Assembly (NCBI GenBank): GCA_977018835.1
Contig: OZ361260.1
Location: 3,472,001 to 3,536,000 of the forward strand
Direction of reading: 5' to 3'
Length of the DNA stretch: 64,000 nucleotides
Source of the DNA: Minutocellus sp. GHC0000111
Taxonomy: Eukaryota
Of this stretch, positions 7,856 through 23,252 are shown one piece after another. Both the position numbers and the translations under genes were made by a program. The notes beneath the pieces were generated by a model, which had not been told where the DNA came from, did no database searches, and saw only the letters and a list, made by a program, of their open reading frames with translations. Within the stretch, counting starts at the first letter, position 1; each line of letters starts with the position of its first letter.

Positions 7856-10291
7856 GTGTTACGAGCACGCCAAGTCGCTCAAGAAGGATCGCAAGCGCAA
7901 GCGAGGAGCGGACGAGGGCGAGGACGACGAGGAGTTCGACGAGTCCAAGTTCACGAAAGACGATGGCGACACCGATGAGATGGACTGCGACGAAAATGCC
8001 AGCAAAAAGAAGAAGAAGAAGACCACCTCCAAGAAGAAGAAGGGCGGTAAGAAGAAGAAGTCTCGTTCAGCCTGGTAAATGATGCCAAGTGGTCGCAATT
8101 GATTCTTGGTGGCGAAAGATTCCAGATAGTACTGAATCAGAACGACCTGTACGCATTTGACCGGCCGGCCGCATTGTCGGCCAAATGCTATTATTCGTAT
8201 GTGCAGGTCTTCAAGGAAAAGCACAACGGTGTCTCTCCTTGGCCGATAGAGGAGAGAGTAGAAACGAAAATAACATATTAGACCTGAGACTTCGTACATT
8301 ACGATCGTATTTATCTTTTGAAATATCACAAATCAAGCCAGCACAACCCGAAGACGTTATCGAAATTGATTCTACTTACTGCGCCCAAGGAAGACCCTCA
8401 ACCTTTTCGTCATGGCATCACGACATCATCGAGGACATCCATCTTGGGGTAGATGAAGTCGGGAGCAATGACGCCGCGGGGCTTGGGCGCAGGTGGGAAG
8501 ACAGACAGGATGGTCTTTCGAAGGGCCTGTTGGGGAGCCGAAACGAAATCACCCATCACGGCCTCGTCCTTGACGCCAGACTTCTTGGCGGCATCGTTAG
8601 CCGCGGCCTCTCCAGTACTCTGGAGGCCAATGACGCAGCAGTCTGTACGAGGACGAGGACGAGGACGAGGAAGAGATATTATTTGGGCAATGTTCAGGAA
8701 AGCAAACCGAAGATGTGGCGTGAGTAATTTGATGAGACGAGAAAATACCAACACGATATCAACATATGGAATAATCCCGATGCATTCTACTTACTGCCTT
8801 CGTCGATGGCCTTCTGCGCAATCTCAATCGCCGTATCGACCTTGGCCGCGATGCAAAGGGATCGGAAAAATCTTTGGTGGGCACCCCAGAACCTTGACTT
8901 GACAATTCCTTGTCCCTTCTTAGTACGAAGCTGCATCCGATGCTTCCGACGCTCCTCCTGCTGGGCAAGGGCTGCATCATCGAGGTCCTCATCGTCGGAA
9001 TCCTCTTCGTCGCCACCTTCAACGAGCTTATCCTGGAGATGGGAGTTGAGGTCCTTCCAGAGCCTCGCGCTTTGGTCGTAGACGGCCTTGATGCCTTTGT
9101 CCATGACGTTGGGGACGGCCTCGAAGTTGCAATCCTCATACGATAGCGTCCGGGCGACGAGGGCGCCCTCTCTCTTGAGATGCATGGCATGGAGCTCCAT
9201 GGCACCACATCCCAGATGCTCGACGGCCTTGAGGAACTGGTTGAAGCCCTGCGGATGCTCGGTACCAGGTCCCCACAGACCAAGGCGGTCCATGAAGCCC
9301 ATGTTCCTGGGCTCGGTGACGGATGTGGCCGAGCAATAGACGATGCGGGCCTGGGGGAGGCGGGTCTGCAGCTCCACGACGGCGGCGGCCGACTTAGAGC
9401 ACTGGGCCTTGTTCTTCTTGTCGAGCTTGGGCTTGCCATTCTCATCGAGCTTGATATTCTTGGCCTACAGCATTGGAGGGATGAGGGAAACAAATGTTGG
9501 TGGTGGGTGAGAGGTCACATAGAAATTCCTATGCAGCCGATACAATTGCAAAGGACCAGCAAATCAAATATGTCAATCTCTGCCATCCCCGCTACCGCCC
9601 TCTTACCTTGTGGCACTCGTCGAGCATGATGAGCCCATCGAACGAATCACCACCGCACCAGTCGATGATCTGCTCGAGACGGCTCTGGAATTTGCCAGTG
9701 CCCTTGCCCTTGGCGATGAGGGTGTTGTACGTGGTGAACAGGACGCCCTCGCCGAGCTTGAGCTTGCCGTACTTCTCATCCTTGAGCAGGTAGCACTGGT
9801 CCTGGGCGTACTCGTCCAGGCCGAGGTCGGTGAGGTCTGCGCCGGAGAGTTGAAGTAGGACGATATCAAGAAGAAGCAAATGGAGTGAGATGGCAAGATG
9901 GATAACAGATGGCATTATCACAACACAACGCAAAGTATCACGCCCAACAACAAATCGAGGATCCAGCAGCATATATATGTTAGTCCCAAAATGCGCACTG
10001 TCCCAGTTCGCGAACTGGGATCCCAGTTTGCGAACTAGGATTTATTTATCCCAGTTTGTGCACTGGGACATATATATGTTAGTCCCAAAATGCGCACTGT
10101 CCCAGTTCGCGAACTGGGATCCAAGTTTGCGAACTGAGATTCATTTATCCCAGTTTGCGCACTGGTATATACTTACCACGCTTGGCATCGTCGTACAGGT
10201 CGGACGAGACGGAGACCCAGATGTGCCTCTTGCGGCCGACGGAGTTGTTCTCGAGGACGAAACCGGCGAGGGTACGACCCTTGCCCATACC
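7856..10291 (-). repeat. Right arm of the inverted duplication
   Basis: Near-identical reverse complement of 4052-6295 apart from a 192-bp insert and about five substitutions. Confidence 0.97.
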
Positions 10292-11605
10292 GGCACCGTC
10301 ACCGACGAGGAATCCCTTGCGGTATCCGACGGTGGGCTTGTTGGAGTTGGCGGGAGGGGCATCGTCCTCGGTGGTGGTGGCAGGATCATCGGACGACGTG
10401 TTGGTGGGGGTGGTACCAGCACCGCCCTTCTTCTCGGCCTTGACGGTGGGCACCTTCTTGTTGGCAGAGGACGTGGTATCCTTCAGGGCCGCCTTCTTCT
10501 TGTTCTTGCCGTTCTTCTTGCCCTTCTTGTCCTTGTTGGGCGTGGCCTGGAAGGTGCGGTTGGGATCGGCGGCCGGCAGGTGCTGCTGATGACGCTGGCA
10601 GCCGTAGACGATGGCCTCGAGCTGGAGGGCGGACAGCTTGCCCTCCTTGATGATGTCGGCGGGCATGGAGAGGTTGTCTGCGTGCAGCATATGTGATTTG
10701 AGGGGGTCAAGAGTGATCATCATATCATACATATGACAAGAGGAGGAGGACGAGGAGGTGGTGGTGGTGAGATAATACGTGGAAATTATGCAAGATACGC
10801 AAAATGAAAAAATTCACACGAAACCTTCACCATTGCATTCCCATATGGATACTAATCATATTATGCACGTAGTAAAGTTAGAATGCACTTGTACATCGTC
10901 CTACGGCACTTCCTATTTGTCATATTTTCGACACAAAAAAACAGGCACACGAGACGCAAAAAAATATGACGATACGAGAGAGCAGCAGATAGATCAATGA
11001 TGATACGTACACGTAACGTCGGGGGGCTGGACGGCACCCAAGCTCGAGTTCTCCACGACGGGATCGGGATGGGGCTTGCCGTAGTGGAGCTTGGCGGGCT
11101 TGTACGGCGTGTACGCAACCTCGTCGGCATCCTCGTCGCTGATCTTCTCGCGATCCTCCTCGGAGATGACCTTCTCGTCTTCCACCTCGTTGCCGTGCTC
11201 GTCGACCTTGACGGGCTTCTTGGCTGGCTGCTGCTGCTGTTTCTCCTTGGCGGCGGCAGCGGCAGTGAGGGCTGCGGCAGCCGCGGGATCGGCCTTGGGG
11301 ACGACGGTGGTGGTAGCATCGGCAGCCTTGGGCTGGGCGGCGTTGGAGTTCGTGCCGTTCTCGGCCTTGACGGAGGCAGTGGCAGTGGAACCACCCGAGA
11401 CCTTGGCCGAACTGGTGGTACCAGGAACAGGAGTATGGTTGGTGTTGTTCTTGCTGGAATCAGCGGTGGTGGTAGTAGTGGAGGTGGCAAGGACCTTGTT
11501 GGTGGTCTCGTTGCCAGCGGTGATGGACTTGGCGTCGGCGGCATTGTTGGAGTTCGAGGAAGTAGCGACGCCGCCAGACTTGAGGGGAAGAGGGGAGGGA
11601 TCCAT
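8410..11605 (-). pseudogene. SBNO: Strawberry notch homolog, N-terminal half (exons 11605-11011, 10677-10177, 9836-9607, 9464-8795, 8642-~8420), truncated
   Basis: [77 protein letters not shown]; frame ends at TGA 8410. Confidence 0.92.
9979..10170. mobile_element. MITE-like palindromic element, two tandem units (99 + 93 bp), inserted in a TA run of Sno intron 2
   Basis: Absent at the paralogous site 4172/4173; internal palindrome TCCCAGTTCGCGAACTGGGA; flanked by TATAT. Confidence 0.75.
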
Positions 11606-11999
11606 GGTGATGATAGTGGTAGAGATGACTGAATGGAATGCAAATAGATCAAATCAATGCGCAGTTGAGGACGATAGTTCGATATAACGAGAGTATCGTA
11701 TCCAAAATCTTCGCTTTGCTTTGGTCAGCAAAATGAAAATTGTGAGGAAATCTCAGGTGATTTTCCCGCTTTGAGATGAACACTAGGAAGGTTCCCTACG
11801 TGTAATTCGGATTAAATTGAGGCGCAACGAACACAACAGCCAGTTTTCTTGCAAAGTAAAACGTCCACCAAACAGTCTGGCAACGACCCCCCAGACTTGC
11901 AACATCTTTTGTCCCATTCTCTCTTGGTATCTTTGTGCTGTGACCAGCGGTTCCGGTAAGAGAGCAGCAGCAGCAGCGGCAGAACGTGCACTCGACGAG

Positions 12000-12830
12000 A
12001 TGGTCGATCCCACCACCTCCACCACCGGTCCCAACACCTCAGCTGCTACCATCAAGGTCAAGAACAAGAATGCAGCGCCGGTTCAGGTATCGGCGGAGCA
12101 GTTGGTGGGAGAGGCTTCGGCGTTGAATAATGATGCCTCTGGTGGTGGTGGAAGGAGCAGTGGTGGAAGAGCCAGCGCCGACGCATCTCGTGGCGGTGCC
12201 GAGGGCACGAGCAGAAGGAACACCGCCGCTGCACCACCTGGTAGTGATGGTAATGACGGTCCCTCACCCAAACGTCAGAGGACCGACGATGGCACCCGTA
12301 GGATGAGCAGCAGTGATACCAAACCAACGCCAGCCGCTGACGAATCATCTACAGCCGCCACATCCTCGGCCGCCGAGGCCATGGCCTCCAAATGCCAGAC
12401 GGCCACCTTGTTCGTCGGCAATCTGCATCCCAGAATAGGAGATGCACATCTCACCAAGCTCTTCTCGCCGTATGGGACGCTCAATCGAGTATCTCTGGTC
12501 AAGAATGGTGCATCGGGGCAGCCCAAGGGGTATGCGTTTGTGGAATTTGCCAGCGTGGAATCGGCACGGAGGGCCATACGGAGGGTCGATGGGCGGATGC
12601 TGCTCAATAAGATGTTGGCTGTTCGGCCGGCTCACGAAAAGACTGGGGCGGCGGCAGGGAATGCTAATGATGATGGTGATTGTAACAATGGGAGCAGAGA
12701 TATCAAGGATAAGAGGCAAGTGAGGAAGGAGAAATCGGAGGTGTTGAGTAAGATTGAGGCGGTGAAGAGAGCCATCGAGGAGAAGAAGGCAAGGGCGGCT
12801 GCAGGTAAATCGTTTGATCGGAAACGGTGA
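12000..12830 (+). CDS. RBM18: RBM18-like RRM protein with N-terminal Crooked-neck-like motif
   Basis: RNP2 LFVGNL, HLTKLF, GQPKGYAFVEF, LAVRPAH, C-terminal KIEAVKRAI. Confidence 0.8.
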   Translation: MVDPTTSTTGPNTSAATIKVKNKNAAPVQVSAEQLVGEASALNNDASGGGGRSSGGRASADASRGGAEGTSRRNTAAAPPGSDGNDGPSPKRQRTDDGTRRMSSSDTKPTPAADESSTAATSSAAEAMASKCQTATLFVGNLHPRIGDAHLTKLFSPYGTLNRVSLVKNGASGQPKGYAFVEFASVESARRAIRRVDGRMLLNKMLAVRPAHEKTGAAAGNANDDGDCNNGSRDIKDKRQVRKEKSEVLSKIEAVKRAIEEKKARAAAGKSFDRKR

Positions 12831-12964
12831 TAGATAGTACTTTCTTTGGAGCATAACATGATACTAGCTATTAAGCAAAAAAGATTATAGAGCTTACCCT
12901 GGATTTTGTTAGTGTCTAAGCTACGTAGCTATCTAGCTTTGGCGAGGGGAGCATCTTTGGAACT

Positions 12965-15900
12965 TTAGGACGACGAAAGATAGTCCGCAGGGTAATTGGG
13001 CCAGGTACCTACCACGAAATCCGGCACTTCACAATCTTCTATAACTTCGTAAGAAGGTAAGGTGGCAATGGCCAATTGTGGAGAGTATGTCTCCCCAGAG
13101 TCATATGCTTTGTCGACTTGTACATAGTAATCTTCTTCATCATTGTCAACTTGTTTGAAGTAACTGCACATTTTGTGTTCTTCAATTCTGTGCACGGTCC
13201 ATTCAAAGGCATCCTTTCGGCATTCAAAATCAAAACGCCTAGCATAGATCCATGTGTACTCGACATCAAGTCCTTTTTCAGCCAAGGATGCCGCAACGGC
13301 GCTAAAACCTGCAATAGCACCATAATACACCCCGGGAAGGGTCCACCCCCCAGTAAAAACAAAGAAGCAATCGTCGCTCCAGCTGTTGCAATGCCAAAAA
13401 TTGTCCAGGCCAAAGCGGCACTTTTCAAGTCGCCATTGACGGCAATTCCTGAAATAAAGAAAGTAAGCTTTCGCCCGTCGTCAGTGACAATCGACTGGCT
13501 CATTTGCGGAGTAGATTGAGCATCTGATCCTTCAACAAAAGCTTCCAAAGCCGATTTTCCCGTCGTAACGACTGATGGAGCAATAAAGCCGCCAACATCT
13601 ATCTCGCCCTCGTCTGTACATCGTAGAGCAATGAGCATTCGATGGTGTTCTCTCACCGCATCTTTTCTGAATGCGAGCCTTTCGACGAGTTGTGTGTCGA
13701 GGGAAAATCTCTTCATAGGACCATATCCAAAGGATTGCCCGATGGGTAGCGTGTACTCTTCAATTTCACCCTTTCCCGTTGCAGAACTATCATGGCGGAG
13801 ATAGGTATCACCGAAAAGGGTTTCAAACTTTTTTACTTGCAAGACATTACGGGTGGGCTCCGGTATGTGTTTCCGTTTTCATCTCTACTTTTCGATCCGT
13901 AAACCTCCGAGGCAATTGGAATCGCGCCCCCGGAACGATTCTCACAGCGAAATCGCACTGTATTTCGGTAAAGGAACATCGTCTCCACATCAAAGAAGAG
14001 ATCCCAAGCAGCGAAGCCTAGTGTCGCAACATCGCCAACTATTGGAACAAGTCCAGCGTTCTTTAGGCCCTTTCCTGCTGTAAAAAGATGCTGCCCCCCG
14101 GGGAGTACCATATTCTTTTGGGCATAGTCGAGAGCTTGAACGAAAACCCTGGCATTTGAAAATGGCTTTCCTGCGGCAGCAAGAGCCGATGCCTCGACTA
14201 TTGTAGAACCGAAGCTGTAAACACTCATGGTTAAACCAGTCGCTTGAGCAACTGCAGTGAACACATCCTCGTCGTCGCTTTTCCAATCGCCTTCCCAGGT
14301 AAATCCAACCCATCGAACCAACATTTCTTCTTCATGAGATAGTGAAATAGGATCAAGGGGAAGGATGTAGCCACTGTCAAAAGCGTTCTTGGTAATGTCT
14401 GCCTTGGAGCTTATCATCTTTGGGATCAATGTACCATCGCATTCATCACACTGTACGTCTATTTCCACTTCATGTTCGAGCTCAATACTATCAGAACTAA
14501 TGTCTTCGTCATAAAGACGAGTATAAAAAAGAAAGCTGACGACATCGGATACGGGGACTGGTGTACATGGTGGCGGTGGTGGCGTGTGGCAACAATTGGA
14601 CGGAAATGGGCAACCAACAGAATATGTCCATCTTTTCATAAAGCTTGGAGGACCCGTGTCGCAATTTTGTTCCAGCGAACACTCACCGAACACATCCTGA
14701 GGAAGGTATCGTTGCCCAGCACTATCGGTAGCTAAGCATTCGGGAATATCGGCTGAAAAGACACAGCAGGGCCCAAACCCAACACAATCCGACGTGTCAT
14801 AAGTAGGAATACCTCCACCATCAATGCAACTTTTATTATTTTGATAGCATTTTCCATCAAAAAGGCCACTTGGAGCCTTAGCAGAACAAGTTGGCGCAGG
14901 AACACAACATGCATCGGAAGAGTCAGGGCAGAAAGCTGTTGTCAAAAGTCCATTTGATGCAGCGCAGTCACTTTCACTTTTACACTCTCCGTCTCTACTT
15001 GAGCACTCATCCTCTCGTACACAACACTTTATACTGTTGTCGCCAGGGCAAAGTCCGTCGGTTGTGGACAAGTTGCAATCGCTCTCCTTTTTACAGGATC
15101 CGCCGATGGAGTTGCACTTGGGAGACTTGATGCAGCACTGTACGTCATCTTCTCCAGGACAAAACCCTGGAACAGCGATCCGATCACTGCCCTGGCATGA
15201 CGACGTATAAAGGCATTCTCCTGTATTGCCATTGTCATCTTGACACGAATAGTCGAAACTGTTTGGATTATCAGGAACAAAAATAACAAAAATTGCACGG
15301 TTACCGGGATTTTTGAAGCTTTCTCTGTCGAAATCGGGATCGTAATTGTCTCGATTTGTGGTTCCATCTTCAAATGTGATGCCATTGAAAAGATCGATCC
15401 CGAAAGTTGGTATGTGGTCATCAGCAATTTCAACTTCGATAGCCAAATTGTAATGTCCAGGCCGCAAATTGGTAATTGCAAAGTTATTTGACGCACCGAC
15501 ATCTGTCTTCCCGAGGAACACCTCAGAGAATGTTCCTCCACTCAAGAAAATTTTAAAACTATCGTCCTTATCATTGCCAGTATCGCCAACTTGTATGGCG
15601 CCTTCAAGAACTGATGCAATGCAGGGCTGGGGGTCGATACGAAATTTGCTTCGGATGATAGTTCCGCTTGGTACGTATTCAAAATGAAGATGAGGCCCTG
15701 TCGCACTACCCGATGCTCCTCCCAAGCCTATCAATTGACCTTCTTCAATTATTTCGCCAATTTCGGCCAACGAAGAGGAGAGATGCGCATATAAAGTTGC
15801 CCCTCCATCATTATGGCGGAGCACCAAGTAGAGACCATATCCCGTAGTCTGACCAGAACTATCGTGTTGTGTTTTTACCAATTCTATCAGACCAGAAGAT

Positions 15901-18499
15901 GCAGCAACGATGTTGTCTCCAACATCTAGGCCATAATCGACACCGAAATGAGGCTTGTATACCTTATCTATGGGATGAAAGCGATTCAAATCAAACGGCG
16001 AACTAACATCATCGCACCCCTTTTCCAGAGGACACCGGAGAGAAGCACCTTGGCACTTGACAGGGCGGATCGCTTGCTGGGCAAGGTGTCGACCGTGGTT
16101 GGTCTTGGCATAGCTCGCCATTTGCGCCCCATCGGAATCGCGCCCAGGAGTTGAAGCTATGAATATATCAGTCGAGTAGTCGCCGTCTTTTGTCAGGTCG
16201 AAAGAGAAAGATGGAACCCAAACTGAGAGGATGTTTGCCTTCTGGTCATATGTTGAATCCACCAGAACAAAGATTGGGAAGGAGCTCTCTTCTACATCAC
16301 TCGATTGTTCGATTCGTACAAAAACTTCAATTTGATCAGTTGTGGGAATGGATTCAAGAAAGTCAGGATCTATTGGGAGGTAGAGCAATGCAAATTTTCT
16401 TTGCGAAGGCATACCGCTAGAACGAAGATTGACATGGTAGCTGCTTTGATGAGTTGGATTATACACTGAAGCTGTCTCGGAAAATATCTGGGCTTTTATA
16501 AGATCAGCTGCAGAGTCAATCTTCTTCACTTCTAAGATTGTATCGCCTTCAAAGAATCCCGCTGGGAAGGAGCCACTTGCAACTCCCGTGAGTTCGATCA
16601 CAGCAGCATTTTCATTTTGAATAGATACCGAGATTGAAGAAAATTGGCTATCATTACATCCAATTTCGCCAGTACCGGAATATCCAGGAGGGCAAGGGCC
16701 GCAGGTGGGACCACCAGAACTATTGATACACTCGGTGAGGAGATCACAGCCCCCGTTGTTGGAATGACAATAATCTTGAACTTCATAGACGCCCTCAACC
16801 CTGACGCAGGCCTCGGCGACGTTGGACTTGTAGCTCAATGAAATATCTTGGTGGCCATCGCAAGCTTGGTAGAAGAAGCACACGTCTGCTGTTTCCCCCT
16901 TTGGAAGGTTTTGATGCTCGGCGGCGAGGCTAGATATGGTGAAGCAACCGTCGGCGCCGATGCTCAGCTTGGTGTGTTGGCCGAGGTCAAAATGTTGGTG
17001 AATATCGTTTTGGACCTCAACCCCATTGACGACGCAAACAGCGAGATTCGCGACATCGCCAATGTCGACATCCTTGTCGTTCTCCAAGACACAACCGTCG
17101 GCTACATCTTCTATCGTAGTAGGGTCGTTGCTCAAATGAATGAATAGGTCACTTAAAGCGATCGGGGCATCGTTGGCACCATCGATACGGATATAAAGCG
17201 TCGCTTCAGCACTGTTTCCATGGTTGTCACCTACGACATACTTGCATTCCTCGTACTCCGTCTGAGTTCCCGATAATTCCTGATATGAACCAGAAGCTCG
17301 GCGGAATATGTAGTCTCCATTAGCACTCAGGCTCAGGATAGATCCATTAGGCAGCTTTATCATCATGGATAAACCCTCACCGGTGTAAGTTACAGTGCTT
17401 CCGGCAGGGCCAACGACCTGGTGGAGGTCTACTTTGAGAGTATGCCCAAAGTCAGGATCAAAATCATTATCAAGGACATTTCCAGTGAGATCGCCAAAAT
17501 AATCCTCGTTGGTTGGCAACGTGTCGTCTTGAGCCTTGTGCATCTGACTCTCGTCGATGACGTGCTTGTACAAAATCGAAACATAGGGAGAAGAACCCAT
17601 CCTTTTGCCTCTTTTCCTTCTAACAGCGACGTCGTAAGTCGCGTCTAGATCGAAAAGGGCCGCTTCGATCTTTTTCGCGGAACCTCGTGCGATGAAACTT
17701 TTCACTCTCGTATTATCCTTGGAGATGCGAACGTCGTAAAGCTTGGGACCATTCACCTTATCCCATCTGACAACGACCTCGTTTGTAGAATAGTCAAAGA
17801 AAACATTGATGCCACTGACTGGATCGTATGTTTCTGTGGATCCACCACCACCACCATAGTTGCGACAGGAACAGCTTTTGCGATAACGATTGCACTCGTC
17901 CGAGGGGATCTGTCGGTTCTGGCAGTACCTTGTTGACCGGTCCCCCCTACAGAAAGCTCGACAGAGCCACGGATGACACTCAACGCCCTGAGCTTCACAA
18001 CCTGTAATGCGAGCTCTGCACCTGTTACCACAGGCTCTCCTCGGCTTGTTACAGAACGTGTCGCACTCGACCACCGAGCGGAAGATATTGTCTGCACGGA
18101 GCTGGCGGTCATCTTCGAGAACCCGTCCCATATCTGATCTGGCACCACGAAGATTGGCGGCTGGGATGGATCGGGGCAGTTGCGTTTCGGGATTGGAAGG
18201 GCTACGTAGCGTGACGGCATTTGTTAAGCCCTTGATTCCATCGCCGCTTAGGGACGAAGGGCGATGTGGTCGGCGTGGATCATGGACAGATCCCACCTGC
18301 TGGTTTATTATGTCGTAGTGAGGAGATGAATAACGATCACTTTAGGTCTAGGCATTGTGAGCGGGCCGATCCAAGGACGAAAGCTACGAAACAAATAAAT
18401 GCACATACGCACCTTCAGATTCCCACCGCTTCCACACACAAACGGCGCTTCGAGAAGCGCACAGACGATAATAATAACTCTAAGGATACGAATCTTCAT
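12965..18499 (-). CDS. ~1,800-aa secreted multidomain protein with M23 metallopeptidase (exon 1 18499-18413; exon 2 18296-12965 with two apparent 1-nt frameshifts near 13877 and 13355)
   Basis: Signal peptide exon MKIRILRVIIIVCALLEAPFVCG spliced GT-AG in frame; HFGVD, GYGLY, YAHL, TGPHLHFE; VCBS/Ig-like, EGF and Cys repeats; ORFs 13039-13842 and 12965-13330 join by adding 1 nt in homopolymers. Confidence 0.88.
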
Positions 18500-19342
18500 G
18501 ATATGACTTCGGGCTCACTTCAATTTTTGTACTTTTTCTTTTGAAATAGACTTGTCGTCTTGTGATTTAATATGTATTGTAACGATCCAGTTTTGCCCTA
18601 CATTGGAATGGCAAAAGTTGTGGAAATAATTTGGATGTAAGAACAATGAACGCCACGATACTAGAGGGTATCGAGAACACATGCCACGAGAACAATATTT
18701 CTGCTTAATGTGCTGGCGACTTACCTCTCAAGGCTTTCTTGCACAATCTATGATATTTTGTTTAGTTGATGTCGCCGTAGCAATGTTCAAATTATTATTT
18801 CCTCTCTGGCTGGCTCGACTCGACTAGCCTCGTAGACTTTGGATTGAACGGAGATGGCAGATGTGTGAGAGGGCGATGGGGCTGACAATACACACATTCA
18901 AATAAGCGGCCAGATCGATCCACTTACTTTATATTTCAGAATCTGAATCTGCTCGTTTAGTTTGCTCACTTATTGGTACTTGTTTTGTCTGTCTCGTCAA
19001 TGGGAGGAGTAGACATGGCAGTAAACCAATGCATGAAGAATTTGTCAGCGCACAGACGAGTGTTACATGATTTCCATACATGTAAGATACCAAGTCGAAA
19101 TCCCGGCCAGTCTTCCACTCACCTGGTGTTGGGCTCTTTTGGGGTTCTTTTTGTTTGATTTATGTCAGCATGCTCCACATCCATCACGCAAGTCGCCAAG
19201 GGAGATCGAGCCATCACGGCTCTTTTTGGCGGCGACGATGCGAAGCACAAATTGTTTCGACGAAGTTCGCCCGGGGCTTATGTGTGACGTCAGAAGGAAA
19301 TACGAACGGGCTTATGTGAGGCGCCCACTCGACAACCGACCA

Positions 19343-20686
19343 TCACTCCACACCAACCGGCTCCTTGCAAAAGCCCTTTTCACGCCAAAATGCATTGCTC
19401 TCTAAGCTATCCATCATCATGCCGGCAGGCGGTCGAAGCATGTAGTAGACATTGCCCTCATCAGCCTTCCTCGCACTCTTTCGGGGCTCACCATGGACCC
19501 AGGAAGAATCAATTTGTAGGGAGCACTCCTCCTCGCATTCTCTTGTGGCACCCTCCCACGAAGTTTCTCCAAGATGGCGCTTTCCACCAGGCAAATCGAC
19601 CTTGTACTTGCCCCCTGTCCACTGCAGCATGCCCAACCAATACGCCGAGTCGGCATCGACGTCCTTCTTTGTAATATGGAGCAGAGATGATAAATGATGC
19701 CCAAGTTCGATCTCGCACCCTCCATTAGTTGATTCATCCACAAGATTCTCAACCCCCTGCCTTGACAAGATATCCCGCAGCGAATAATCGGCTTTGTTGG
19801 ATTGATCCCTCGTCTTGGCTGTCTCACATTGCCACAGAACTTTTCTTGATATTACACAAACATGCTCGGAATGATCAGAATGGAGAGGAATTTCCTCGGC
19901 CTTCTTGTACCGTATCCTCTTCATAGCCAACTCTCGGGCAACACCAACCGTTTGGATCGACGGTGATGAGACACAGACAAACCCATTGGGCTTGTCTCGC
20001 AATAAGCACTGGGCGCAGCTGACCTTGTATGGTTGGCCGCCGCCATCTTCATTGTCGGCACTTCCATTTGCCGAGAACAATTCGTCATGCAACTTGAGCT
20101 CGGCATCCTTGGGGTTGGACTGAAATGCATCATAACTGGTATCCAAGCACAAATAGATTGAATTGATACTCTTGATATCCGGCAACACAACCAGCCCGTC
20201 CAAAGTCGGCTGTACATGTACCGCAACATCATCCTGCTGCTTCGGCGGCCCAAATGGCTGCTGCCCAGGAGCCACCCGCTCTCGGATGGCCTTCATCTTG
20301 GAGCAGCCACATCCCGGCGCATGGACCTTGTACCTAGCCGCTTGGCATTGTGCGTGCATCGAGGGAAAGTCTGAAGTGAACTGCTGAACTGGTCGCTGGG
20401 ACGCACCACCATCCCTCCTATCTGACCTTTTGTTGTTGTTGTTGTGGTTTTGATTGGATCGCCCCGCCAAGCTGCTGCCTCGACCTCTCCCACCCTTTTC
20501 ACCCCGCCCAGCGGCGCCACGGCCACCACCTCAGCCCCTCCCACCACTGTTAGAAGAGGAGTTGCGAGCACCCTGGCGTTGCTGGCCTCTCCCACCTCTG
20601 CCGCCGCCCCGTCCACCTCTCGACGACCTACCGGCACCTCCGGTGGAGGCGGCAGACGGCGTGGCAGCAGAGGGGTTGGAAGGCAT
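19343..20686 (-). CDS. RGG-rich N-terminus + Nudix hydrolase domain; in-frame TGA at 20531-20533
   Basis: Nudix box GGKRHLGETSWEGATRECEEECSL; ATG 20686 is in frame with ORF 19343-20470 except for one TGA. Confidence 0.8.
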
Positions 20687-22045: not shown

Positions 22046-22241
22046 ATGGGCACTTTCAGTACAGAGACGGGATGCAGAGACGGGATGCACATACACACAA
22101 CACTGCAACACATAGCTGTCAGAGCTGAGATTTTCATGAGAAGCACAATATGTAAGTCGCCGCATCGCCAAAAGAGGAAGCAAAACTCGAGATACAATAG
22201 TACCACGGCCCTTCATGCAAGACCACTTACTTTTCTCACTG

Positions 22242-23252
22242 ATGATGAAGATGAATTCCATCGTTGCTACCACGCTTTTCCTTTCCTTTGTCGCAGGTAC
22301 CACCTCGGCGCAATGGGTGGAACCAGAGTGGGACGATTATGATTGTGTCATCAAGAGAGATGAGCTGTTGCAAACTGTCGCTCCTCACACTCCGGTATAT
22401 CTCAATGGCGACGCCGTTTGCAGACCTTATCAACCACGTGATACGAAATTCCCCGACCGTGTTCGTCTGACCGATGACGCTCCCAACCAAGCCGGTTCTG
22501 CTTATACCACGTCAACATTTCGCAACACCGAGTATTTTCCCTTTGAGACTTTTTTCGAGTATGAAATCATCCCTGGACAAGACGAGACTGTTGCTGATGG
22601 CATCGCTTTCGTCATTCACTTCGACCCCGATGGTGTGGATGCACTCAGCTCAGTTGGTGGAGGTCTCGGCGTTTACAACGGCTACCCTGAGAGCGCCCCC
22701 TGGGGAATCCGCAACGCTCTTATCATTGAAGTCGATACCTTCCTCAACGAAGGGCCCTTTCCTCCATTCTCCACAAACCAATATGCTCGCACCATCGATG
22801 TCATTGTCACCGATGGCGAAGGATATGCAACGCGAGTGCACGAGGAAGATATATCCCTCACCATCCCCTGGTCCAATAGGGGAAAGATGTGGATTTCACA
22901 TTCTATTAGTTCTCCTTATATTCTTGACATTTACTTCGGAGGCCAGTATACAGACCCAAGACCATCCAACCCTCTGATATCCTTCGATCTTTCTGAATAT
23001 CTGGAGCAACCTGATTCCAACGTTATCTTTTGTGGATTTTCTGCATCTACAGGCGGAGCATTTTCGATCCAAGAAATTGTTCGCTTCACAGGTTGTGCTG
23101 AAATCCCCATTGATGGCGATGACCCGCTCGCCGATGAGGGTCCCTCGGACGGCCCTATCCTACTTGCTTCCACACTTGACGGTGCCGAGTTGACTTCCAT
23201 TAGCTCCATTGAAGCCTCATTCATCGACACGGAACCCGATGCTGAACCTTAA
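22242..23252 (+). CDS. Secreted L-type (legume-like) lectin domain protein
   Basis: Signal peptide; VRLTD..NQAGSAY, ADGIAFVI, GGGLG, IEVDTF.N, GFSASTG. Confidence 0.85.
   Translation: MMKMNSIVATTLFLSFVAGTTSAQWVEPEWDDYDCVIKRDELLQTVAPHTPVYLNGDAVCRPYQPRDTKFPDRVRLTDDAPNQAGSAYTTSTFRNTEYFPFETFFEYEIIPGQDETVADGIAFVIHFDPDGVDALSSVGGGLGVYNGYPESAPWGIRNALIIEVDTFLNEGPFPPFSTNQYARTIDVIVTDGEGYATRVHEEDISLTIPWSNRGKMWISHSISSPYILDIYFGGQYTDPRPSNPLISFDLSEYLEQPDSNVIFCGFSASTGGAFSIQEIVRFTGCAEIPIDGDDPLADEGPSDGPILLASTLDGAELTSISSIEASFIDTEPDAEP

Follow-up and report, generated by a model that had tools for sequence, protein, structure and literature searches.

A stretch of 64,000 nucleotides (nt) from Minutocellus sp. 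GHC0000111 (GenBank assembly GCA_977018835.1, contig OZ361260.1, positions 3,472,001 to 3,536,000), hereafter the window, whose positions are used throughout, carries on its minus strand a spliced and transcribed gene for a predicted-secreted mosaic protein of 1,516 amino acids (aa). The core of this protein is a cassette of bacterial type, in which a domain with ZU5 fold, an M23 metallopeptidase domain and a small beta-sandwich follow each other. The cassette was likely acquired from bacteria, and we lean, by somewhat more than an even chance, towards reading the protein as a secreted, horizontally acquired and probably pro-form peptidoglycan endopeptidase that would act on live bacteria nearby.

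The cassette spans ~430 aa (residues ~582-1016) and includes the following features:

16143..16640, minus strand: beta domain of ZU5/GAIN fold, aa 582-747, candidate pro-domain (residues 1-160 of the model, with a predicted local distance difference test, pLDDT, >90 in each block)
16083..16091, minus strand: R-H-L (RxL) motif, candidate processing site in the flexible linker before M23
15609..16055, minus strand: M23B metallopeptidase domain (PF01551) with H812-x3-D816, H867 and H898-x-H900
15336..15608, minus strand: small seven-strand beta domain, candidate cell-wall-binding domain, conserved in the family (strands from the model)

The middle domain matches PF01551 with E 7.7e-19 (68.1 bits, gathering cut-off 28.7) and possesses all five catalytic and zinc residues, H812, D816, H867, H898 and H900, which bears out the full zinc set that a preliminary description of this locus had noticed. 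These residues correspond to the motif set of M23B peptidases, HxxxD, HxH and an extra His ~30 aa before HxH, as given in the part of PMC9662197 available to us. A cassette model built from 102 sequences reaches a mean pLDDT of 90.9, with a disordered linker (pLDDT <50) before M23. In this predicted model the M23 fold resembles the LytM domain of DipM (Z 19.5, root mean square deviation (rmsd) 5.4, 144 aligned residues), a Vibrio zinc peptidase (Z 19.1), EnvC (Z 18.1, rmsd 2.4, 128 aligned), LytM (Z 17.1) and LECT2 (Z 12.6, 15% identity), and Foldseek agrees on the M23 assignment. None of the named M23 families ShyA, ShyC, MepM, DipM, EnvC, NlpD and Pgp3 is reached at the NCBIfam whole-protein cut-off: the best scores are 75 bits against 700 (ShyA) and 60.3 against 341 (MepM). 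The cassette is an M23 subfamily beyond these named families, and its ZU5-fold partner is unexpected.

The evidence for this partner is structural. Residues 582-747 of the predicted model, scored on the whole three-domain model, resemble the ZU5 domain of ankyrin (Z 10.1, rmsd 2.8, 120 aligned), CD97 (Z 10.1, rmsd 3.1, 131 aligned) and CARD8 (Z 7.1); across the ZU5/GAIN/FIIND domains of ankyrin, CD97, CARD8 and UNC5b the likeness in fold amounts to Z 6.7-11, but sequence identity is only 12% or less. Autoproteolytic domains of this kind have a Ser or Thr nucleophile after a conserved Phe, and a His nearby. At the Phe of the site presumed to be equivalent, 50 of 102 family rows read T and 18 read S, whereas our protein reads F728-D729; if the sites do correspond, F-D in place of F-[T/S] means that self-cleavage of its ZU5-fold domain would not be expected. 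The third cassette domain has no match among the fold-comparison lists of the whole cassette model.

The cassette is widespread, if sporadic, in bacteria. Among 1.84 billion representatives, 130 clusters at E<=1e-30 share it end to end, and the best relatives of our protein have 34-38% BLAST identity over ~430 aa. When 185,579 prokaryote genomes were scanned with patterns, 20 loci from eight bacterial phyla emerged, of which 18 were strong; the patterns being strict, these numbers are not a census. Metagenome contigs gave no locus in a single-protein scan. The unit that was transferred would be this cassette, which is larger than the M23 domain alone. No gene neighbourhood is shared among 17 bacterial loci (51 of 115 open reading frames scanned), a transposase or integrase lies near three of the 17 (L081, L091 and L093), and in a myxobacterial genome a Tox-REase-5/Imm52 toxin-immunity pair (L096, 489-2642) is situated upstream of the cassette gene at a distance of 1.3 kb. 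From these observations we infer that the bacterial members are an accessory, exported enzyme, which fits better than a division enzyme. Many family members start with signal or lipoprotein-like leaders when inspected by eye; other neighbours are a PBP (L085) and a MacB-type transporter (L088).

In a FastTree phylogeny of 155 rows, all eukaryote-like rows fall into one group of 42 rows that also contains bacteria, where they form three subgroups. An IQ-TREE analysis under LG+G4 comprised 58 rows (35 from the 42-row group, 18 from the loci and five others), with near-duplicates and partial loci left out and the root chosen on Bacteroidota-like rows; both trees were inferred with no mixture model and with LECT2 left out, and the IQ-TREE one has long branches. 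Here our protein groups with P0145 (99/90), this pair is joined with foraminifer-labelled rows (96/94), and a Synedropsis group stands separately (84/99). The eukaryotic rows lie inside groups of 44 rows (98/96) and 33 rows (91/90) containing named bacteria; the latter unites Porticoccaceae, Archangiaceae and other Pseudomonadota with eukaryotic rows in an unsettled internal order. This nesting, together with the occurrence of the cassette in eight bacterial phyla, gives good support to transfer from bacteria and agrees with the bacterial origin proposed in the preliminary description, which had named the nesting of M23 among bacterial sequences as the mark of such a transfer. The trees single out neither a donor nor one count of transfers: a single eukaryotic clade is neither rejected by the approximately unbiased test (p 0.391) nor proven by it.

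The acquired cassette is part of a nuclear gene, which sits among host genes and begins with an ATG at 18499:

18413..18499, minus strand: exon 1, 87 nt, 29 codons, from translation; RNA contigs overlap it
18297..18412, minus strand: intron, 116 nt, GT..AG, phase 0; joint 18293/18410 (cut +3) in X6, X7, X8 and X11
13833..18296, minus strand: coding part of exon 2, a single long exon with 4.46 kb open, up to the TAA stop at 13835-13833

Part of the stretch is contained in 14 of 18 listed sequencing runs, six of them RNA, and contigs of two DNA-type and five RNA runs were compared. In four of the five RNA runs (X6, X7, X8 and X11) the intron is removed from the contigs, the evidence coming from three samples and two studies, and in the contigs of X12 no removal was seen. 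A spliced signal-peptide exon had been proposed beforehand: exon 1 indeed encodes a hydrophobic leader, and the correctly spliced contigs confirm its intron as well as the expression of the locus. An X11 RNA contig overlaps part of the M23 domain (15849-16025). The diatom locus is also present and spliced in sponge metagenome or metatranscriptome and marine metatranscriptome runs (X5-X9).

The length of ~1,800 aa originally given for the protein has to be reduced to the 1,516 aa of the spliced translation. An unspliced RNA contig of 177 nt at 13704-13880, of depth 2.7 and from a single sample (runs X6 and X7), runs across the stop with zero differences and keeps it, and P0001, a second record of the gene on a 1.47-Mb contig, differs in one residue and has an identical C-terminus. 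The longer model requires a 50-nt intron at 13836-13787, which this RNA contig retains, and a second frame change near 13330; support for neither change was found.

Before the cassette, the protein carries a succession of modules:

within 18413..18499, minus strand: predicted signal peptide, ~aa 1-23, hydropathy peak 2.3
17865..18065, minus strand: basic Cys/Arg-rich segment, aa 107-173, isoelectric point (pI) 9.1, seen in the sequence; no family match
17568..17840, minus strand: probable beta domain, earlier called FN3-like
16938..17534, minus strand: two VCBS or bacterial cadherin-like Ig repeats, Pfam-matched span
16656..16769, minus strand: EGF-like module

The two repeats match Pfam Cadherin_4 (PF17803, E 3.1e-12) and Big_9 (PF17963, E 7e-7), and the NCBIfam VCBS model TIGR01965 scores above its own cut-off, so that these repeats, like the Cys/Arg-rich segment, are as first described. 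The EGF module is recognisable by its six-Cys pattern, although its match to Pfam EGF_3 (PF12947, E 0.0098) stays below the cut-off. The FN3-like assignment, by contrast, finds no relevant Pfam match at E<=1.

Behind the cassette follow two further parts of the protein and a tail beyond its stop:

14589..15245, minus strand: five acidic six-cysteine (6-Cys) modules with beta-defensin-like Cys spacing, common to P0145
13836..14561, minus strand: C-terminal domain with one mildly hydrophobic stretch; no Pfam match; its start is common to P0145
12965..13878, minus strand: tail beyond the stop, with open frames of 279 and 171 codons as measured from stop to stop, neither of them in frame with the gene

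The five 6-Cys modules had been reported and are located at 15245-14589. We compare them with the beta-defensin consensus, which we take to be C-x6-C-x4/5-C-x8/9-C-x6/7-CC; module 2 has the spacing 6-5-8-7-0. A single-sequence model of the C-terminal 475 aa has a mean pLDDT of 35.6 and is usable only for the first Cys module (pLDDT 64-83), the best matches of which are weak: helianthamide with Z 3.7 and human beta-defensin 4 with Z 3.6. The Cys modules have no match among PDB sequences, the C-terminal domain of ~240 aa has none in Pfam and nothing useful in Atlas, and hydropathy reveals no C-terminal membrane anchor. Of two hydrophobic-hairpin domains proposed earlier, one corresponds to this C-terminal domain. 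The second lies beyond the stop: because 13878-12965 is in two other frames, and the unspliced RNA contig keeps the stop, the protein has only one such domain, and on present evidence the tail is outside the protein. Pfam finds no match in the tail frames, and none of the five RNA runs has a contig over 12965-13700, which is uninformative at such sparse cover. A resemblance of the tail to a duplicated C-terminal domain, seen by eye, was discarded, as its scores lie within those of shuffles (108 and 93 of 500; 63-237 of 500). The tail includes a hydrophobic stretch; it may be what is left of a longer reading frame that has decayed, or else a small gene of its own.

Looking up 29 relatives by exact sequence provided source labels. 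P0147, labelled Synedropsis sp., a diatom, combines EGF repeats with the cassette. P0172 and P0242 are labelled Nonionella stella and P0283 Bolivina argentea, which are foraminifera; since P0242 and P0283 are nearly identical across two species labels, shared prey or cross-contamination is suggested, and the foraminiferal labels may reflect one or the other. These three copies and P0042 have an N-terminal hydrophobic anchor in type II fashion and a Thr/Pro-rich low-complexity stalk, and P0242 and P0283 are devoid of the His before HxH. P0145, with 33% identity, has the cassette, the 6-Cys modules and the start of the C-terminal domain in the same order as our protein. L001 (1128-2696) is a stand-alone copy of the cassette that has a leader peptide, a linker rich in Pro, Lys and Ser, and the motif RRL; it neighbours an LRR gene and a DUF7633 gene, and its contig is read as eukaryotic by these sequence features. 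In P0144 the cassette is fused to a goose-type lysozyme (E 4.3e-23), which places two peptidoglycan enzymes in one chain and is the best contextual support for a peptidoglycan substrate.

Counts on the 16 eukaryote-like rows are partly circular, because 11 of them were judged by modules, tree position or linker motif (the others being our protein and four named rows): here all five residues are kept in 9 of 16 rows against 135 of 139 other rows, and RxL is found in the linker of 13 of 16 against 16 of 137. Five rows are labelled independently of RxL (our protein, P0147, P0172, P0242 and L001), and all five have the motif, compared with one of 15 named rows from bacteria. The accessible part of PMC9650480 presents RxL as a site at which diatom proteins are potentially cleaved.

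From these elements a mode of action can be proposed. The signal peptide would export the protein, and the VCBS/Ig, EGF and Cys-rich modules may tether it in mucilage or on cells. A host protease might then cut at RHL, so that an 80-kDa half bearing M23 comes apart from an N-terminal half that contains the ZU5-fold domain, and this cleavage would perhaps lift latency, if latent M23 enzymes are taken as the model; according to the sections of PMC9662197 at hand, M23 enzymes commonly have pro-regions. The beta-sandwich and the 6-Cys modules may help to bind the target wall, and M23 would cut the peptidoglycan cross-links of bacteria at the surface of the alga, in the phycosphere or in a biofilm, with Gram-positive or already damaged cells as the most accessible targets. 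The 'antibacterial weapon' of the preliminary description remains a proposal, if the most likely one.

Several observations weigh against it. Most diatom-associated bacteria are Gram-negative, and an acidic protein of 162 kDa (pI 4.7) would not be expected to cross their outer membrane. The 6-Cys modules are acidic as well (net -1 to -6), which sets them apart from cationic defensins. Of the 16 eukaryote-like copies, 7 have lost one or more of the five residues, as opposed to 4 of the 139 others, and lysis is therefore not the sole use of the cassette in eukaryotes. The eukaryotic origin of P0144 is one that we infer. The grouping of the eukaryotic rows differs between FastTree and IQ-TREE, and the bootstrap of the latter is not settled (correlation 0.93). 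RNA cover of the gene is patchy and shallow (depth ~2-8 among the contigs listed), and one contig of the DNA run X5 is short of one base at 16750, which is either an error or a broken allele. Finally, the literature searched held no characterised member of the cassette subfamily.

The foremost alternative, to which we give about one chance in five, is a role in adhesion or recognition: the M23 groove may bind peptidoglycan and so hold or sense bacteria, or it may cut a matrix protein of the host that is rich in Gly and Ala, and no bacteria would be killed. The cassette accounts for only some 30% of the protein, and much of the other ~70% is adhesin-like (VCBS/cadherin-like repeats, EGF and Cys modules); the degenerate sites of seven eukaryote-like copies and the anchored, stalked architecture of the foraminifer-labelled copies, which is that of surface receptors, point in the same direction, and degenerate M23 folds do serve in binding, as the available text of PMC9662197 states. 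On the other hand, our protein has kept all five residues despite ~60% divergence from its nearest relatives, and the lysozyme fusion of P0144 points to wall degradation.

It is less probable still that the enzyme cuts peptidoglycan for nutrition, recovering nitrogen and carbon from the walls of dead bacteria, or as a means of setting muropeptide signals free. The biochemistry would be the same as in an attack on live cells, the protein is by its size and charge better matched to exposed fragments of wall than to Gram-negative cells that are alive, and the foraminifer-labelled copies fit a digestive role, as foraminifera feed on bacteria. Diatoms, however, do not phagocytose, and an RxL motif beside a candidate pro-domain suggests controlled activation, for which scavenging has less need.

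A decaying relic of the transfer, with transcription at background level and no current function, is improbable. A coding-like tail out of frame after the stop, the gap in the X5 contig and the low RNA cover would agree with decay, but an exon open over 4.46 kb, an intron removed correctly in two studies and an intact active site do not, and the order of cassette, 6-Cys modules and C-terminal domain has been kept in a relative as distant as P0145. Bacterial contamination or a chimeric assembly, as could be suspected from the bacterial type of the core and from the presence of locus DNA in sponge metagenomes, is very unlikely and already largely refuted by the spliceosomal intron removed in RNA, the eukaryotic modules in one reading frame with M23, the second record on a 1.47-Mb contig, a diatom TM9SF gene inside the window, and a DNA contig of run X1 (4,675 nt, 12425-17099) that connects the interior of the host's RRM gene with sequence past the M23 domain and shows zero differences.

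The intron and host flanking genes had been invoked against contamination from the outset, and the splicing in RNA and the X1 contig substantiate this argument, with the reservation that X1 is possibly the source sample itself. The window includes the eukaryotic genes TM9SF and PGAP1, a DHHC gene and an SNF2-bromodomain gene. The best named matches of TM9SF are Pseudictyota dubia (85%) and Trieres chinensis (84%), and because both are diatoms the host is a diatom, as had been assumed; it is probably close to multipolar centric diatoms such as these two. An AT-richness thought to distinguish the gene does not set it apart, and base composition was dropped as a signal of transfer: the GC content at third codon positions (GC3) of exon 2 is 0.451, towards the bottom of the range spanned by 16 other long frames in the window (0.449-0.835, approximate values since these frames run from stop to stop), of which four (DHHC, PGAP1, lectin and ankyrin) have 0.449-0.488, and it is TM9SF with 0.835 that is the outlier.

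A few further features of the surroundings may be recorded. About 4 kb upstream of the gene, 22140-23252 on the plus strand encodes a secreted-looking protein of legume-lectin type (PF00139, E 3.8e-10; GC3 0.478). In the interval separating the NUDIX and M23 genes, an X7 RNA contig skips 134 nt (18988-19123) with minus-strand GT..AG ends, either an intron in the untranslated region of one of these genes or part of a separate transcript. At 19093-19500, a segment into which the NUDIX frame extends with its 3' end, contigs of X1, X5 and X7 have 3-4x the local depth and many differences, and this stretch therefore has diverged copies elsewhere in the genome. Short repeats in translated frames (motif like SQFANWD) occupy 9854-10100, in an apparent intron of a long spliced gene at ~8400-11650, which presumably resembles strawberry-notch proteins.

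Among known systems, the M23B endopeptidases LytM, lysostaphin, zoocin A, ShyA/ShyB, MepM and DipM share with our protein PF01551, the HxxxD, H and HxH residues and the fold, and possibly latency through an N-terminal region. Unlike these enzymes, its M23 domain is flanked by a ZU5-fold domain and a beta-sandwich instead of LysM, SH3b or OapA, lies within a eukaryotic, predicted-secreted mosaic and scores far below the cut-offs of the named families. LECT2 is likewise a eukaryotic secreted M23 fold, but is without a catalytic His (PMC9662197, in the part available). Decay of LECT2 type, which had been considered beforehand, is not seen in our protein: none of the five residues is missing, and over the whole cassette its identity to the best bacterial-type relatives is 34-38%, as against 15% to LECT2, the latter compared by fold only.

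Peptidoglycan hydrolases of bacterial descent are known from other organisms, and the kind of gene reported here is therefore not new. The accessible portion of PMC12352652 describes M23 hydrolases of halophilic archaea, homologues of zoocin A carrying PG_binding_1, that were shown to kill a bacterium; they parallel our case in the presence of bacterial M23 in an organism devoid of peptidoglycan, in domain shuffling and in patchy distribution, whereas our gene is eukaryotic and spliced and encodes a predicted hydrolase of another subfamily. In Trichomonas, NlpC/P60 proteins are laterally acquired peptidoglycan hydrolases of a protist with function shown (10.1101/320382, in the text at hand), but these are DL-endopeptidases, another enzyme class, in a mucosal parasite and not in a free-living alga. 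Our protein would work in a manner similar to these archaeal and Trichomonas enzymes. Blastocystis, a stramenopile like our host but a gut anaerobe, has 29 copies of M23B genes in two subtypes, their function being stated as open in the available part of PMC5608401. A full-text search, with subscription journals outside its range, retrieved neither M23 enzymes in diatoms or foraminifera nor a ZU5-M23 pairing. The main text of a preprint on horizontal gene transfer in diatoms (10.1101/2020.01.24.918219), as far as available, names neither M23 nor peptidoglycan, although its supplements may list such genes, and PMC12612818 contains no mention of M23. PMC4015805 was set aside, since the portion available concerns chloroplast DipM and has no bearing on a diatom M23 gene.

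The control of surrounding bacteria by diatoms is usually ascribed to small molecules. A secreted wall-cutting enzyme would provide a single gene with which to ask whether algae attack bacteria with proteins as well. By label, the cassette occurs in at least two eukaryotic lineages besides its sporadic occurrence in eight bacterial phyla, so that new wall hydrolases may be sought in it and the domestication of a bacterial enzyme studied. Tentatively, and with the odds rather against so broad a view, diatoms and foraminifera may share a ZU5-M23-beta-sandwich hydrolase from marine bacteria, perhaps taken once, to which an RxL site was added and which was shuffled onto EGF, defensin-fold and lysozyme modules; it would then serve in antibacterial innate defence, and its dead copies would be peptidoglycan receptors.

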